Origin: Gamaleyavirus NAN33P5
Strand: one strand, 5' to 3'
Sequence record: OZ035750.1
Length of the DNA stretch: 64,000 bases
Part shown: positions 45,866-50,715 of the stretch, piece by piece
Position numbering within the stretch: the stretch's first letter is position 1
How the letters are laid out: each line of letters starts with the position of its first letter
Notes under the pieces: generated by a model
Databases searched by the model: none
What the model saw: the letters and a program-made list of their open reading frames with translations, nothing else
What the model was told of the DNA's origin: nothing
Position numbers and translations under genes: made by a program

Positions 45866-46372
45866 TTATTTTGAAGGTCTAGCAGCTACTGGTTTGTTTT
45901 CCTGGTTATTGTACTTGCCAGTATATGTGGCAGGTTCTTGAACCAGATGAAATAATACTTGAGCTATCCCAGCACCAGCCGGGATATGCAGCTTCTTACG
46001 ACCATGATAGACCAGTTCGAGGGTAAGATACCCTTTCCATCCTGGTTCTATTACAGTATTAAATACAGATAATGCACGTCTTGCCCATGTGGATTTATCG
46101 TGAACGATAGCTACACAGGATGGAGACATGTTGAACTTCTCAATTGCTGAAGCCAATGCGAATTTACCGAAATGGCGTGATACTTGTTTTCCATCAACGA
46201 TTTTCACCATTGGAATCAACCCAAATAAGCGATAGAAGGTGATGTCTTGTTTGATACGAATATCATATCCAGCTTCGCCCAACCCATAGCTTACACCATG
46301 CTCGGATACCTTACGGTCTGGGACATCCAGCAATTGAGATGAACGGTATAGAGAATTACCATTAACAACCAT
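45866..46372 (-). CDS. dCTP deaminase / dUTPase-fold protein
   Basis: GYDIRI, IEPGWKGYLTLEL and GAGIAQ segments typical of the dCTP deaminase/dUTPase superfamily. Confidence 0.4.
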   Translation of the reverse strand: MVVNGNSLYRSSQLLDVPDRKVSEHGVSYGLGEAGYDIRIKQDITFYRLFGLIPMVKIVDGKQVSRHFGKFALASAIEKFNMSPSCVAIVHDKSTWARRALSVFNTVIEPGWKGYLTLELVYHGRKKLHIPAGAGIAQVLFHLVQEPATYTGKYNNQENKPVAARPSK

Positions 46373-47547
46373 TATTTCATTCCTTTAGGGATATGAACTA
46401 CCTCCCCAAAAGGTACGGTAGCATTAGGATTATTCAGAACACACCAGATGATAGGGATATCAAATGGTAATTCTTCCATAGGACGAACATACATATCGGA
46501 GAATATGATTGCAGCGGTTGGCTTATTCTTAATAATCCATTCACGCACTGGTTCAAGGTTTGTACCACCACGACCAGTAATCTTAATCTCTTCAAAAGTA
46601 TCTTCTTCAGTGATGTCCATCTCTTCTTGGATAATATCGTCGAAGGTAATTAAGGACATCTTCTTAGGATTGAACTGGCTCTTAACGTAGGCAACCTCTG
46701 AGTTAAAACGCAGAGAGTCAGCACTACTAATAGAACCAGATACATCCTCAAAGTAAGCTAAGTGTCGTAAGCGTCCTTCATCATCTTCCAGAGAAGGTAG
46801 ATAGATGTCAGTGAAACGACGGTTAGGTCTGGCCCATGTATAGTGTGAGTCATCAATGTCGGTAAAGAAGTTCAGTAGGACTTCCTGCCAAGGAACCACT
46901 GGTTTAAGGAATTGGGTAATAACCTCTTCCATACGACCAGCACCCTTACCAGGCATCATTCCACCAGCCATCTTCTGGCTTTGCATTGCACGTACTACGT
47001 TGTTGACAACAGCACCCTGGGACTGCCCCGAAGAGGGAGCTTTCATGTCGCCAGCAAGACCTGCTCCAGCACCCCCTGACGGCTTCTGCCTTTTCTGAGG
47101 GTTCTTCATCAGGTCATCGTAGATGTCTTCTTCAACCCATCCTTTATATTGAGGGTCTTTGCAAATGCCTTTATCGATACCAGTGAACTTGTAACCATCT
47201 TCCTCTAACTGAAGATTAATGAAGTGATCACATGCCTGGTTCCAGACTTCCGGGTCACGGCTTCCACAACGGATGCCATGGAGATATGCCACATGCCAGA
47301 GTTCGTGCATTAGTACTGTTTCTCTTGCATCGGGACACATCCAGACAAAGAAGTCTGGGTTGAAATGGAGTTCTATCCCATCAGTACATGCAGTGGGGCA
47401 GTCTTCACGTTTCCATGAGAACTTAAGACTACACAGCAATGAACCAAAAAATGCAGCAGAGCGTCCAAGGAATGCATTAGCCTGAATACGGTCATACTCA
47501 CGCATGAGTTGTTCATCACTAAGTGTGTGCTGAGGTATCTGGTTCAT
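46372..47547 (-). CDS. VWA-like protein with N-terminal HExxH metallopeptidase-like domain
   Basis: LMHELWHVAYLHG (HExxH) in N-terminal part; 391 aa immediately downstream of the AAA+ ATPase, the usual MoxR-partner arrangement. Confidence 0.4.
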   Translation of the reverse strand: MNQIPQHTLSDEQLMREYDRIQANAFLGRSAAFFGSLLCSLKFSWKREDCPTACTDGIELHFNPDFFVWMCPDARETVLMHELWHVAYLHGIRCGSRDPEVWNQACDHFINLQLEEDGYKFTGIDKGICKDPQYKGWVEEDIYDDLMKNPQKRQKPSGGAGAGLAGDMKAPSSGQSQGAVVNNVVRAMQSQKMAGGMMPGKGAGRMEEVITQFLKPVVPWQEVLLNFFTDIDDSHYTWARPNRRFTDIYLPSLEDDEGRLRHLAYFEDVSGSISSADSLRFNSEVAYVKSQFNPKKMSLITFDDIIQEEMDITEEDTFEEIKITGRGGTNLEPVREWIIKNKPTAAIIFSDMYVRPMEELPFDIPIIWCVLNNPNATVPFGEVVHIPKGMK

Positions 47548-47554
47548 GTTGTGA

Positions 47555-47959
47555 TTATCCGTGAATGTAACGAGAGATGTTGGCAGCAGCCTTACGCCAT
47601 TCAGGGGTAGCCTGAATTTCTGGTAATGCTTTACCTACTGTACGGAAGTACAGAATCTTATGGGTGAACGTTTTAAAGCGTTCAATATACTGAAGTACAT
47701 CAGCGAAGTTATCTTCAGTAGTCTTGTTAGCCAAATGGTTAACGGTAGCCCAACACAGGTTATTATCTTCCGGTAGTACACAGCCCAAAGGGTCTTTAAC
47801 TACCTTCTCAATCGTAATCATACGATTGTATACCTGAGTGAACTGAACAAATTCTGTAGCTTTACCGGCAGTAACGTGGCCTGCATAGTAGATAGAATCT
47901 TCATCAGGCAGAGCACCTTCCGGTCGGTTCTTAAGGTCTTTGTTAACAAAGTCCCAAGT
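47555..47959 (-). CDS. AAA+ ATPase, proposed exon 3
   Basis: ORF 47555-47983; frame stays open upstream to a stop at 48017; 5' boundary set 14 nt after the conserved TTGCGAACTA element (intron then ends in G), by analogy with intron 1. Confidence 0.45.
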   Translation of the reverse strand, partial: TWDFVNKDLKNRPEGALPDEDSIYYAGHVTAGKATEFVQFTQVYNRMITIEKVVKDPLGCVLPEDNNLCWATVNHLANKTTEDNFADVLQYIERFKTFTHKILYFRTVGKALPEIQATPEWRKAAANISRYIHG

Positions 47960-47964
47960 CGTGA

Positions 47965-48137
47965 TATTCGACGTAGTTCGCAAGACTACGCCCGTTCTCT
48001 TATGAACTGCTGCATGTCACCATGCAGACTAGACTATATCAACACCCTTAGCATTACCTGTAGGGTGGCTACCATTTCGAGCATCATTAGCTTATGCTCT
48101 ACTCCCTCCCGGGATAGTCGTTGGACATTTATGGAAG
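47965..48137 (-). repeat. conserved intron 3' element, copy A
   Basis: Shares TAGTTCGCAA, CTGCTGCATGTCACCATGCAGA, AGACTATATCAA, ACC(A/G)TTTCGAG and GATAGTCGTTTGG blocks with 49160-49350. Confidence 0.55.
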
Positions 48138-48713
48138 TCAGAAATTACGTTTACGTCTAGTATCCCCAATTGAGTCCAGATAGGCATCTACGGCTTTAGC
48201 AGCAGCTACCTCATCTTTAAACTGTTTGTAGAATACTACCTTGTAATTATCTTTAACCTTGGCTTCGTAATAAGTGTAAATTTTATCTTTATACTTACTA
48301 CGACGTATGTGCACATTATGGTACACAGACTTACCTGGTTTAGGGGCTAGCCCAGTTTTATGAGCATGGAGATTATTGTCTTGTGTGGTGCATGGTTCCA
48401 GGTTGTCTTCATGGTTATTCTCCTTATTACCATCTAAGTGGTTAACAGGATCACCATACTTAAAGCCTGGTTTAAATGCTGCACAAACGAGTTGATGAAT
48501 AGTTTTCTTATGGGTCTTCCCATCTTTGTACATAGAGGCATACAGATAGCCTAATCGGTTCTTGTTAAGTGCCCTGATAAGGGGCTTAACTTCTCTGTAC
48601 TTATTTACAGATTGGCGTGACTCATGCTTACGGTATTTACCTGTATTAGATACTTGGTATAAACCTTCAAATTCAACAACATCTTTCCAAATCTCACTCA
48701 TGCTGACTCCCAA
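48138..48713 (-). CDS. HNH homing endonuclease (intron-encoded)
   Basis: N-terminal EIWKDVVEFEGLYQVSNTGKY (NUMOD4-like) and HQLVCAAF...NHLDGNKENNHEDNLEPCTTQDN HNH core; 191 aa. Confidence 0.7.
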   Translation of the reverse strand: MGVSMSEIWKDVVEFEGLYQVSNTGKYRKHESRQSVNKYREVKPLIRALNKNRLGYLYASMYKDGKTHKKTIHQLVCAAFKPGFKYGDPVNHLDGNKENNHEDNLEPCTTQDNNLHAHKTGLAPKPGKSVYHNVHIRRSKYKDKIYTYYEAKVKDNYKVVFYKQFKDEVAAAKAVDAYLDSIGDTRRKRNF

Positions 48714-48804
48714 TTTAGTAACGGATTGACTTTTACATATTACCTTTAGGCAACAGAAAGTAAAGTGTTTCCCGTTTTAGGCAGCTTTAGACAGGGAATT
48801 ACTC

Positions 48805-49158
48805 CCCTGAATCGCAGTGTGTTTACGAGGACAACAGAATGTCTTGTTCTTATGGGCAGGGTCGAAGTCGTGCAGATAGCCAGGGTTAGCATGTAAGAAT
48901 GCAACCAGACGCTCATCCCATTCTTGTGGAATCATTACGTCTTCAACAAAGATGTCGAAGTTAAGTTCCATTTCGAAGTGGACAACACGAGACTGCATTG
49001 CAGTACCCAGTGGGTTAACGATGGCTCGGTCAGTAGCTTTGTTACCGGCACAGATAATCATCACATTAGGGTGAAGTTTTTTCTGTCCAGTCATACGGTC
49101 TAGAATCAGTTTGTATGCAGCAGCTACTACTTCTTTCTTAGCTGAGTTGAATTCGTCG
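48805..49158 (-). CDS. AAA+ ATPase, proposed exon 2
   Basis: Frame open from 49157 (DEFNSAKKEVV...) with in-frame stop just upstream; completes Walker B (LLFL+DEF) and supplies sensor-1-like NVMIICAGN; 3' end uncertain. Confidence 0.5.
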
Positions 49159-49159
49159 C

Positions 49160-49350
49160 ATTATCTTCACATTAGTTCGCAACTACTAATGCCGTCAGTA
49201 CACTCAGTGAATACTGACTGCTGCATGTCACCATGCAGAGGAGACTATATCAAAGCCCTATTGCTAGGGCTGTTACCGTTTCGAGTGCCATTGGCTTGCA
49301 CCCTACTCTACTCACTTCCACATTTCTGTGTGTTTTCGATAGTCGTTTGG
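49160..49350 (-). repeat. conserved intron 3' element, copy B
   Basis: Same conserved blocks as 47965-48137, in the same order. Confidence 0.55.
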
Positions 49351-49353
49351 CGT

Positions 49354-49923
49354 TTAAATGAAATTGGTACTGTACCCAATCTGTGTAAGATTGTTGTTAG
49401 TTACGTAGGAGTCATAGGCTTTGGCAGCCTCTTCCTCTGTTTTGTAACGTCCCAAACCAATAGATTTCTTGTTAACCCTTATATGGGCACACCATCTTTG
49501 TCTTTGCTCACTCCAGGATACACCTACGTATTTGGAGGAGCCTCCACGATTTTTGTTACTAGCGTTGGCATGTCTGTTTGACAATAATCCAGTATCCCAA
49601 GCATGTTTAATATTTTGGGACTGGGTACACCATTCCAGGTTACTCTCGTGGTTATTAAGAGGGTTTCCATCTATATGATTAATAACTGGATAGTTATTGG
49701 GGTTTGGTACAAAGGCTATGCCTACCAGACGATGAACTTGATATTTGTACACTTTACTATTCATGTACAGGTTCACGCAGTAGTACCCTTTGTTATTAAG
49801 ATACGGTTTTATATGTGTCCTATTTTTGTATTTATACTTTCCTTCTTTTCGGCGTACTACACCAAAGTTGGAAACTTCATACGGTAAGTCGGGCACATCT
49901 TTCCAAATTTCATTATTTAGCAC
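49354..49923 (-). CDS. HNH homing endonuclease with AP2-like domain (intron-encoded)
   Basis: EIWKDVPDLPYEVSNFGVV, HRLVGIAFVPNP...NHIDGNPLNNHESNLEWCTQSQN HNH core, C-terminal YVGVSWSEQRQRWCAHI...YKTEEEAAKAYD AP2-like; 189 aa. Confidence 0.75.
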   Translation of the reverse strand: MLNNEIWKDVPDLPYEVSNFGVVRRKEGKYKYKNRTHIKPYLNNKGYYCVNLYMNSKVYKYQVHRLVGIAFVPNPNNYPVINHIDGNPLNNHESNLEWCTQSQNIKHAWDTGLLSNRHANASNKNRGGSSKYVGVSWSEQRQRWCAHIRVNKKSIGLGRYKTEEEAAKAYDSYVTNNNLTQIGYSTNFI

Positions 49924-50040
49924 AGGATTGTCTCCAATTGATTAAAACTCAAGTATACACCTGAGCCAACCATATTAGAAGAGGTTCCCTGTTTAGGTAA
50001 CTTTCGACATGAGATTGCTCTCATGAAGCCCCGTCAGTTA

Positions 50041-50354
50041 AGGAACAAGAGCCAGCCATTATAACCTTCTGGTACTTCGTCACCCTCGATAGGGAATAAG
50101 TCAGCGAAAGGGATAAACTCTGCACGATCACCATTACGGAATGGTAGACCAGACAAGTCTTCCGGGGCAGAAGTAGACAGACGATGGTCAATCAGCTTCA
50201 TGCCAAATTCTTCTGCAACAGAACGAATAATTGCAGACTTACCCATGCCAGGTGATGAAGTCAGGAACGGTACGTTACCTGCTTGCAAGGCACGGATAAT
50301 AAAGTTACGGGCTTGGCGTGTATTACATACAGTCAAGGAGTCAATGCTCGCCAT
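50041..50354 (-). CDS. AAA+ ATPase (MoxR-like), exon 1
   Basis: Walker A SSPGMGKSAI; ORF ends ...YNGWLLFLN-stop exactly where a Walker B hhhhDE is expected. Confidence 0.6.
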
Positions 50355-50388
50355 TTACTTACTCTCCTAAAGTTAATGGAATTACTAA

Positions 50389-50715
50389 TTAAGATTTAAC
50401 GCAGGGATACGCTGTATCAATCGCTAACAGAACCATGTCTGACGATATTTTTACTGCATTTACCTTTCGGTCATACAGAATAATAGATGCCACTCTGTCA
50501 AAAATGGGTCCTAACTTCATATCGTCAGGTACACAATTCTTTCCTGCTTCCACTCCCATAGTAACCATGCCCATGAAGTAACCCTGGTTCACAAAGTTTG
50601 CATTATTGGCTTTGTAATCAGCAGCAGCTTCCAACAAGGTTGCACGACTAGATGCCTGAGCACCGAATGAAAGAACTGATAGAGCTACAAGAACAACAGC
50701 AATTAAAGTTTTCAT
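50389..50715 (-). CDS. secreted/periplasmic small protein
   Basis: N-terminal signal-peptide-like MKTLIAVVLVALSVLSFGAQA; 108 aa. Confidence 0.5.
   Translation of the reverse strand: MKTLIAVVLVALSVLSFGAQASSRATLLEAAADYKANNANFVNQGYFMGMVTMGVEAGKNCVPDDMKLGPIFDRVASIILYDRKVNAVKISSDMVLLAIDTAYPCVKS

Follow-up and report, generated by a model that had tools for sequence, protein, structure and literature searches.

A gene for an AAA ATPase similar to gp24 of phage N4, at positions 47555-50354 of a 64,000-nucleotide (nt) stretch of Gamaleyavirus NAN33P5 DNA (sequence record OZ035750.1; this whole stretch is called the window here), most probably gives rise to a single pre-mRNA that is interrupted by two independently acquired, T4-td-like (IA2-type) group I introns. 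It is suggested that both introns are spliced and that their spread is driven by the homing endonucleases they encode, and we put the probability of this reading at about 0.9. An earlier note on this DNA, made from the sequence without database searches, had proposed an ATPase gene with two group I introns, and the joining of the exons, the ribozyme core and the splice junctions all lend support to that interpretation. The gene and every element of its introns lie on the minus (-) strand.

The gp24 gene and its joined product

When positions 47400-50500 were used as a megablast query, 103 phage records were matched, nearly all of them G7C-like, N4-like coliphages (Schitoviridae, Gamaleyavirus) with 90-97% identity, and no phage record covered 80% or more of the query. 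In most of these relatives the three matching blocks are contiguous and form a single coding sequence (CDS) of 1053 nt named 'ATPase, similar to N4 gp24', as in PhAPEC7, G7C and Mimir124; gp24 was present in every relative examined. Aligned by blastn, the intact PhAPEC7 gene falls into three colinear blocks on the window, its nt 1-315 corresponding to 50354-50040, nt 316-649 to 49157-48824 and nt 649-1053 to 47959-47555. Ambiguities of 1 nt at the boundaries of these blocks were settled by the group I rule that the exon ends in U and the intron in G.

The resulting layout, which is based on the PhAPEC7 alignment and on translation, consists of three exons and two td-like group I introns. Exon 1 (50041..50354) contains codons 1-104 and two nt of Leu105, holds Walker A (GMGKS) and has the 3' end ...UUCCU. 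Intron 1 (49159..50040, 882 nt) is inserted in phase 2 within the Walker B codons (LFL|DE). Exon 2 (48825..49158) extends from the last nt of Leu105 through Arg216 and holds the DE of Walker B together with the sensor-1 region (IICAGN); its open frame continues into intron 2 up to a stop at 48779-48777. Intron 2 (47960..48824, 865 nt) is inserted in phase 0 between Arg216 and Thr217 (CPR|TW), and exon 3 (47555..47959) encodes Thr217 to Gly350 and the stop codon.

The open reading frames (ORFs) from which the earlier note had started are all present. That at 50354-50034 carries SSPGMGKSAI and stops after ...GWLLFLN, and past a TAA at 49163-49161 the frame is open again as C-DEFNSAKKEVV...NVMIICAGN. 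The two proposed HNH ORFs (49923-49354 and 48713/48701-48138) have the expected domains, as described below, and the third ORF, which ends at 47555, is open upstream of exon 3. Two of its estimates are revised here. The end of exon 2 is at 48825, not at about 48805, and the spliced product has 350 amino acids (aa), not about 358.

Joined together, the exons form an ORF of 1053 nt, the same length as the uninterrupted genes of PhAPEC7, G7C and Mimir124, with which the product shares 98.0-99.2% identity as protein and 94-96% as nucleotide sequence. The alignment to these three intact genes is gapless at both junctions, which was the outcome anticipated for a joining in silico, and the exons contain no frameshift or stop codon. 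Residues 4-349 of the spliced protein give a single end-to-end match to PHROG 1297 'ATPase' (profile 3-354 of 356, E=4.9e-134), and Walker A, Walker B and the sensor-1 region follow each other in order along this full-length colinear match to the gp24 family. The Pfam AAA domain is found at residues 31-146, across junction 1, with 28.7 bits (cut-off 21.2), and exon 1 alone reaches 18 bits, which is under the cut-off. Removal of both introns thus restores Walker B (LLFL-DEF) as well as the conserved CPRTW motif.

Ribozyme fold and splice sites

T4 td is the archetypal IA2-type phage group I intron and the founding self-splicing phage intron. Both introns of the window carry its full core, comprising P1-P2, the P3/P7 pseudoknot, P4-P6, P7.1/P7.2, P8 and P9-P9.2. 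The fold was assessed in an alignment of ten introns, of which nine contain an ORF (T4 td included; the P6 loop with the ORF was deleted) and one has no internal ORF. From this alignment RNAalifold independently recovered P2, P3, P4, P5, P6, P7.1, P7.2, P8, P9 and P9.2, and the P7 pseudoknot and P9.1 were added before pairs were counted. Standard pairs were found in 92.7% of the 640 pair cells, compared with 35-44% when the 3' partners were slid by 1-3 columns, and 43 of the 64 pairs had compensatory changes, that is, changes on both sides. None of 500 shuffles reached any of the observed pairing measures.

Individual helices tell the same story of conservation with covariation. P3 is 100% paired and all six of its pairs covary (GUUACC/GGUAAC in intron 1, GCUGCC/GGUAGC in intron 2), and P7 is invariant and 100% paired across the ten introns. 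The presence of P7.1 and P7.2 between P7 and P3' is a hallmark of the IA subgroup; both helices occur in each intron of the window, covarying and 100% paired. The value for P9.1 is 67.5%, since the MAFFT columns of this helix are off by one for intron 1 and for its counterpart in phage U1G, and the helix is clear in the individual sequences. J6/7-P7 (AACGACUAUC), J8/7-P7' (GAUAUAGUCU) and P9 (CUGCAUGGUGACAUGCAG) are common to T4 td and both introns in near-identical form. In all nine ORF-containing introns P6 opens 6 nt after P4' and closes 9 nt before ACGACUA, so that the endonuclease ORF forms a P6 loop in every case, like that of I-TevI in td. About 300 nt of each insertion outside the ORF make up a conserved, covarying group I ribozyme.

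In intron 1 the internal guide sequence occupies 50032-50029 and is followed by P2 (50025-50008), P3 (50001-49996 with 49277-49272), P4 (49992-49988 with 49926-49922), P5 (49983-49980 with 49935-49932), P6 (49914-49903 with 49367-49357), P7 (49346-49340 with 49247-49242), P7.1 (49339-49312), P7.2 (49308-49283), P8 (49271-49254), P9 (49238-49221), P9.1 (49218-49194) and P9.2 (49190-49171), with the terminal G (omega-G) at 49159. The same order is seen in intron 2, where the guide is at 48815-48812, P2 at 48809-48792, P3 at 48785-48780 with 48073-48068, P4 at 48776-48772 with 48724-48720, P5 at 48766-48762 with 48733-48729, P6 at 48711-48703 with 48141-48133, P7 at 48121-48115 with 48036-48031, P7.1 at 48114-48103, P7.2 at 48099-48079, P8 at 48067-48043, P9 at 48027-48010, P9.1 at 48007-47994, P9.2 at 47990-47972 and omega-G at 47960.

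The 3' 150-260 nt of the introns were found by sensitive blastn in 547 and 153 phage records, which include split thymidylate synthase, DNA polymerase and terminase genes. Among the relatives that can be named are the td introns of Bacillus phage KKP_4047 and Dickeya phage JA29, the APK44 DNA polymerase intron and the KIL1 intron. Because the joined ORF matches intact homologues end to end and the insertions share homology with hundreds of phage group I introns, chance is excluded as an explanation of the arrangement.

The splice sites also have the form expected of group I introns. In both cases the upstream exon ends in U and the intron in omega-G, as the earlier note had proposed for exon 1 and for the ends of both introns, and each exon end has a matching guide sequence. 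The guide GGGG of intron 1 pairs with the exon end UCCU, its G at +9 forming a U.G wobble, and the guide GCGA of intron 2 pairs with UCGU with a U.G wobble to the G at +10. The guide G of T4 td is at +9, the same geometry as in both introns of the window. Across 13 introns the guide lies directly 5' of P2 and varies with the exon context, as in UGCU/GGCA (Pylas), GCGU/GCGC (KKP_4047), CCAU/GUGG (HdK5) and CUUGGGU/GCCUGAG (T4 td). In this comparison the 5' splice site assigned to the JA29 td intron is probably misplaced (its P1 has 2 bp), which leaves the window unaffected. A position of junction 1 at CTT|GAC, suggested by blastn, would give the intron a terminal C and was rejected for that reason. 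With CT|C...G|C as the junction the rule of a U at -1 and an omega-G is obeyed, and the C seen in those intron-positive alleles that were examined supports this choice. In both introns the terminal G comes exactly 14 nt past TTGCGAACTA, the spacing given in the earlier note. The block itself is not a splice signal; it is the loop and 3' strand of helix P9.2, which covaries (AUUAGU...ACUAAU versus CGUAGU...ACUACG).

Taken together, the predicted course of splicing in vivo is that of other group I introns. Each intron would fold into the P3-P9 ribozyme core and its internal guide would pair with the last four nt of the exon, with the U.G wobble at the splice site. Catalysis would then begin with the attack of an exogenous guanosine after the exon-terminal U, and the freed 3'-OH of the exon would attack after the intron-terminal G. 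Removal of both introns in this way would leave the 1053-nt ORF with Walker B and CPRTW intact.

Several observations weigh against this reading. P1 has just 4 bp in each intron, and a search by eye found no convincing P10 pairing with the 3' exon in either of them. In Rfam, the group I model RF00028 gave 35.6 bits (E=1e-6) for intron 2 and 19.0 bits (E=0.097) for intron 1, both under the 50-bit gathering score. The covariance-model check proposed in the earlier note gave evidence for a group I core, in that RF00028 matches both introns and the complete td-type core covaries, with scores that stay under the threshold. These sub-threshold scores are considered uninformative because T4 td, which also has its ORF in P6 and served as positive control in the same pipeline, has no RF00028 match at E<=1. 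Homologues without an internal ORF do pass (KIL1, 71.9 bits; KKP_4047 td, 67.2 bits), and the 3' cores of the window introns align to these at E of about 1e-11 to 1e-18. The gathering threshold of Rfam is operational, not a defining property of the group I family. The detection of ORF-containing phage introns by RF00028 is fragile. We also observed that the KKP_4047 td intron was missed in a search of 32.6 kb and scored its 67.2 bits in one of 12.6 kb, an effect of filtering. Over the whole window, Rfam at the gathering threshold found just two tRNAs, and at the E-value threshold only the two introns, so that there are no further group I introns by this search.

If one or both introns were decayed relics that no longer splice, gp24 would be a pseudogene in this phage. 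The Rfam scores, notably the 19 bits of intron 1, the short P1 helices and the weak P10 could be read in this way, as could the finding of the two-intron arrangement in two contigs only. We nevertheless regard this as improbable. All core helices pair, and the invariant nt of J6/7, J8/7 and P7 are identical to those of T4 td; the exons are free of frameshifts and stop codons at 98-99% protein identity to intact genes, both endonuclease ORFs are intact, and gp24 is kept in every relative examined. Intron 1 is moreover 95% identical to that of U1G, a viable isolate.

Another view would be that the insertions are free-standing HNH cassettes and that gp24 is now made as three polypeptides, each translated on its own, which assemble again into a working enzyme without any RNA splicing. 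The annotations of U1G, pSb-1, Pollock and pVco-5 do list the pieces as separate 'ATPase' CDSs, and free-standing HNH genes adjoin gp24 in G7C, Mimir124 and U1G. Such cassettes would not account for the approximately 300 nt of conserved, covarying ribozyme outside the ORF in each insertion, nor for a junction that falls within a codon, between nt 2 and 3 of Leu105. The earliest in-frame start codon of exon 2 is Met127, downstream of Walker B, so that a separately translated piece would be without this motif, and exon 3 is without a plausible start codon or Shine-Dalgarno sequence. We consider this explanation very unlikely. Inteins or group II introns, which have nothing more than the interruption of a conserved ATPase motif in their favour, are already refuted by the sequence, as in-frame stops 2 codons (intron 1) and 15 codons (intron 2) past the 5' junctions exclude protein splicing, and no group II family was matched in Rfam where the group I P3/P7 pseudoknot fold is present.

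Endonucleases, mobility and origin of the introns

The genes in the P6 loops are predicted to encode homing endonucleases. Gene 1 in intron 1 (49354..49923) has a GTG start and encodes 189 aa with NUMOD4 (38.9 bits), HNH_3 (33.3 bits) and AP2 (40.1 bits) domains, all above the Pfam cut-offs. Gene 2 in intron 2 (48138..48701) begins with the ATG at 48701 and encodes 187 aa with NUMOD4 (35.8 bits) and HNH_3 (25.7 bits, cut-off 24.8), again above the cut-offs. I-HmuI is an HNH nicking endonuclease from the intron of the SPO1 DNA polymerase gene, and its structure (PDB 1U3E) was matched by endonuclease 1 with E=2e-12 and by endonuclease 2 with E=2e-10. The alignment includes the N-terminal NUMOD4-like beta region and the HNH motif, and the C-terminal DNA-binding regions differ, endonuclease 1 having an AP2 domain. 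Both proteins have NH(I/L)DGN...NL...N in the alignment and so keep the motif His and the terminal Asn. We take this His to be that of DH(74-75), the catalytic motif of I-HmuI, and the last Asn to be the metal-binding N96; the position of Asp74 itself is Asn in both window proteins.

The two endonucleases are 34% identical to each other. Endonuclease 1 is 95.8% identical to the HNH protein of U1G, and endonuclease 2 has its best phage relatives in the HNH genes of the gp24 introns of pYD6-A (48.7%) and Pylas (44.2%). The signals for their translation lie within the ribozymes. The Shine-Dalgarno sequence GGAG of endonuclease 1 is the 3' strand of P5 and its GTG start overlaps the 3' strand of P4, and in intron 2 the 5' strand of P6 is formed by the Shine-Dalgarno GGGAG and the sequence up to the ATG, with the stop codon in the 3' strand of P6. 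From this layout of ribosome-binding sites inside ribozyme helices it may be expected that ribozyme folding and endonuclease translation compete.

We propose the following mode of mobility. In a mixed infection, the I-HmuI-like NUMOD4-HNH endonuclease would nick or cut an intron-less allele at the conserved motif, and recombinational repair would then copy the intron into that allele (homing). The presence/absence polymorphism of intron 1 is consistent with such mobility. Phage U1G has the same intron at the same site, annotated 'Phage intron', with 95.4% identity over all 882 nt; unlike the window it is without intron 2, its exons 2 and 3 being contiguous. Besides U1G, intron 1 is present in six metagenome contigs that carry the exon-1 product (L015-L020) and absent from relatives that are more than 90% identical. 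The exact product of exon 1 is listed in 51 blocks of the assembly collection, and the contigs inspected have the one-intron architecture.

Wherever the 3' junction of an intron-1-positive allele was read (the window, U1G, L015, L016, L019 and L020), position +1 of exon 2 is C; in the three intron-less alleles it is T, and the change from T to C is synonymous (Leu). Upstream Leu codons also differ between intron-1-positive and intron-less alleles. The change at +1 would fit co-conversion or immunity of the target site.

Intron 2 has a much narrower distribution. At most 30% of it is covered by any phage record, IMG/VR yielded no relative of endonuclease 2, and an exact 26-mer from the P1-P2 region is absent from IMG/VR and the JGI metagenomes. 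An exact-protein look-up detected the intron with the identical endonuclease nowhere but in a Logan contig of 74 kb (ERR12949720) and one similar place; this contig has the same two-intron layout as the window, and the arrangement has been seen in two contigs only. In a large protein collection the 90%-identity cluster of endonuclease 2 has 36 members. Relatives with 65-72% identity are encoded at the identical CPR|TW site of metagenomic N4-like contigs, and the introns at that site (L025, L027 and L028) are td-like with the same GCG(A) guide sequence as intron 2. Intron 2 is new for cultured Gamaleyaviruses.

An origin of intron 2 by duplication of intron 1 was considered and rejected, the ribozymes being 62% identical and the endonucleases 34%. 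At 62% the two introns are no closer to each other than to the td introns of unrelated phages, and were therefore acquired independently. The intron of phage pYD6-A is related to intron 2. Over the 3' 260 nt it is 74% identical, at 48.7% identity of the endonucleases, and its site is 3 nt upstream. The pYD6-A guide fits the shifted exon end (GUCCU/GGGAU), with boundaries at 1888/2755 of pYD6-A versus 48825/47959 of the window. The offset may reflect either sliding of the intron or an independent insertion.

Other split gp24 genes and wider comparisons

Mapping on the spliced protein revealed at least five insertion sites in gp24 of N4-like phages, all at conserved motifs. Walker A is interrupted in Pollock (GSPGI|GKS), the DL|SG site at aa 67/68 is used in pSb-1 and Vibrio phage phi 1, Walker B (LFL|DE) in the window and U1G, AAA|YKL at aa 119/120 in Pylas and Pollock, and CPR|TW in the window and metagenome contigs, with pYD6-A displaced to CP|RTW. 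The gene of pVco-5 is split near AAA|YKL, with alignment up to aa 115 and again from aa 120. Some of these cases have been recognized. The Pylas record states 'ATPase split by intron; HNH homing endonuclease encoded in intron', gp24 of pYD6-A is recorded as a joined CDS, and in Vibrio phages JA1 and VchO139-I the homologues of gp24, DNA polymerase and gp43 have been reported to be split by HNH genes (Fouts et al. 2013; PMC3670811). Pylas, pYD6-A and JA1/VchO139-I share with the window the host gene, a ribozyme of the td-like family and a P6-borne NUMOD4-HNH endonuclease, but have one annotated intron each, that of Pylas being at the AAA|YKL site.

Pollock likewise carries two group I introns in gp24, which divide the gene into three exons and are not annotated as introns; its sites differ, being inside Walker A and at AAA|YKL. 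The first of these introns has no ORF and is matched by RF00028 with 101.4 bits (746-1098 of the locus), and the second contains an HNH gene. The GenBank entry divides this region (NC_027381, 673-2923) into a 'hypothetical protein' of 28 aa, two pieces named 'ATPase' and an HNH gene, and the only intron mentioned in the Pollock genome paper is that of the polymerase (PMC4319500).

The earlier note had called two introns in one phage gene unusual. That rarity was overstated, as multiple group I introns are documented in other phage genes besides the gp24 introns of N4-like phages. Twort orf142 has three group I introns and undergoes exon skipping (PMC11878797, also citing Landthaler & Shub 1999), and the DNA polymerase and terminase genes of Bastillevirinae have two to three, often with HNH endonucleases (PMC11878797). 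These phages differ from that of the window in belonging to the Herelleviridae, in the host genes invaded and in that splicing there is experimental, whereas here it is deduced from sequence. The presence of two related ribozymes in one transcript might allow exon 2 to be skipped here also; by our own reading of the sequence, exon 1 joined directly to exon 3 would shift the reading frame.

In comparison with T4 td and its I-TevI, the window introns have the same helix order, P7.1 and P7.2, the endonuclease ORF in the P6 loop, the U.G wobble at the 5' splice site and the guide G at +9/+10, with ribozyme identities of 59-62%. They differ in that the host gene is for an AAA ATPase, not thymidylate synthase, and the endonucleases are of HNH/I-HmuI type, not GIY-YIG; P5 and P9.1 are expanded in intron 1. 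The arrangement in the window is a new combination of known mobile elements. Every component, and the host gene as target, is of a known kind, and there is no new mechanism.

These comparisons add a well-defined case in which one gene, for the gp24 ATPase of Schitoviridae, has been repeatedly invaded at its most conserved codons by td-like introns. Related and easily grown coliphages with zero, one or two introns would provide a convenient system for the study of homing, co-conversion and intron-mediated phage competition. For the intron endonuclease of phage PhiPA3, interference competition has been shown (PMC11620839). We tentatively raise the possibility, which is speculative, that gp24 is an intron hot-spot where lineages of td-like introns and HNH endonucleases compete for conserved codons, and that a double-intron phage gains a competitive advantage by damaging the intron-less gp24 of co-infecting phages.

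There are also consequences for annotation. The five ORFs of the window should be described as one joined CDS and two intron-encoded endonucleases, instead of the current three 'ATPase' or hypothetical fragments and two HNH genes. The same error is found in the public records of U1G, pSb-1, Pollock, pVco-5 and phi 1, and it appears to have seeded PHROG families made of exon fragments. Some PHROG families, namely phrog_21479 and phrog_16335, appear to be built from exon fragments of intron-split gp24. The first of these has 68 positions and is labelled 'unknown function'; its match covers residues 1-67, the part encoded by exon 1 in genes with a split at DL|SG.

The gene downstream of gp24 (46372..47547, minus strand), outside the introns and given here as context only, is similar to N4 gp25 and has DUF2201 metallopeptidase-like and VWA-like domains (Pfam DUF2201_N, 2.5e-54; DUF2201, 1.7e-34). 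It begins 7 nt past the gp24 stop codon, and this synteny is kept in all relatives. In several public records the gp25-like DUF2201/VWA gene is named 'HNH endonuclease' (L006, 3421-4518; L021, from 2937; L022, from 3236; L023, from 3028; L004, 1-648). The window homologue (46372-47547) has no HNH domain by Pfam, and the name looks like a propagated mis-annotation. As context, a VWA-like DUF2201 partner next to the ATPase fits the pairing of MoxR and VWA proteins. The spliced ATPase scored 17.7 bits for AAA_5, under its cut-off of 22, and had no NCBIfam match; its best PDB match was the AAA domain of midasin (E=6e-5). To call it a MoxR-type ATPase is plausible.

Further candidate loci were noted in the course of the comparisons. 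Aeromonas phage PhAER-4 (L007) has two group I matches about 50 nt apart, at 1406-1613 (45.8 bits) and 1665-1944 (90.5 bits), and the pair is flanked on either side by a 'hypothetical protein' CDS. The locus may represent a gene whose two introns are separated by a very short internal exon. Escherichia phage HdK5 (L009) has, upstream of the intron in the terminase region, a second match (160-313, 32.4 bits) to a group I intron's 3' half; GAUAUAGUCU and P9 are present in it, and it falls where a CDS named 'putative recombination endonuclease' ends. Elsewhere in the window, a tRNA at 23445-23520 (-), for which ARAGORN gave an undetermined two-base anticodon and Rfam a tRNA score of 42.5 bits, lies beside a normal tRNA-Ile (23361-23439), and about 370 nt away, at 23888-23963 (-), Rfam gives a tRNA-Sec-like match under its threshold (34.9 bits, cut-off 47).

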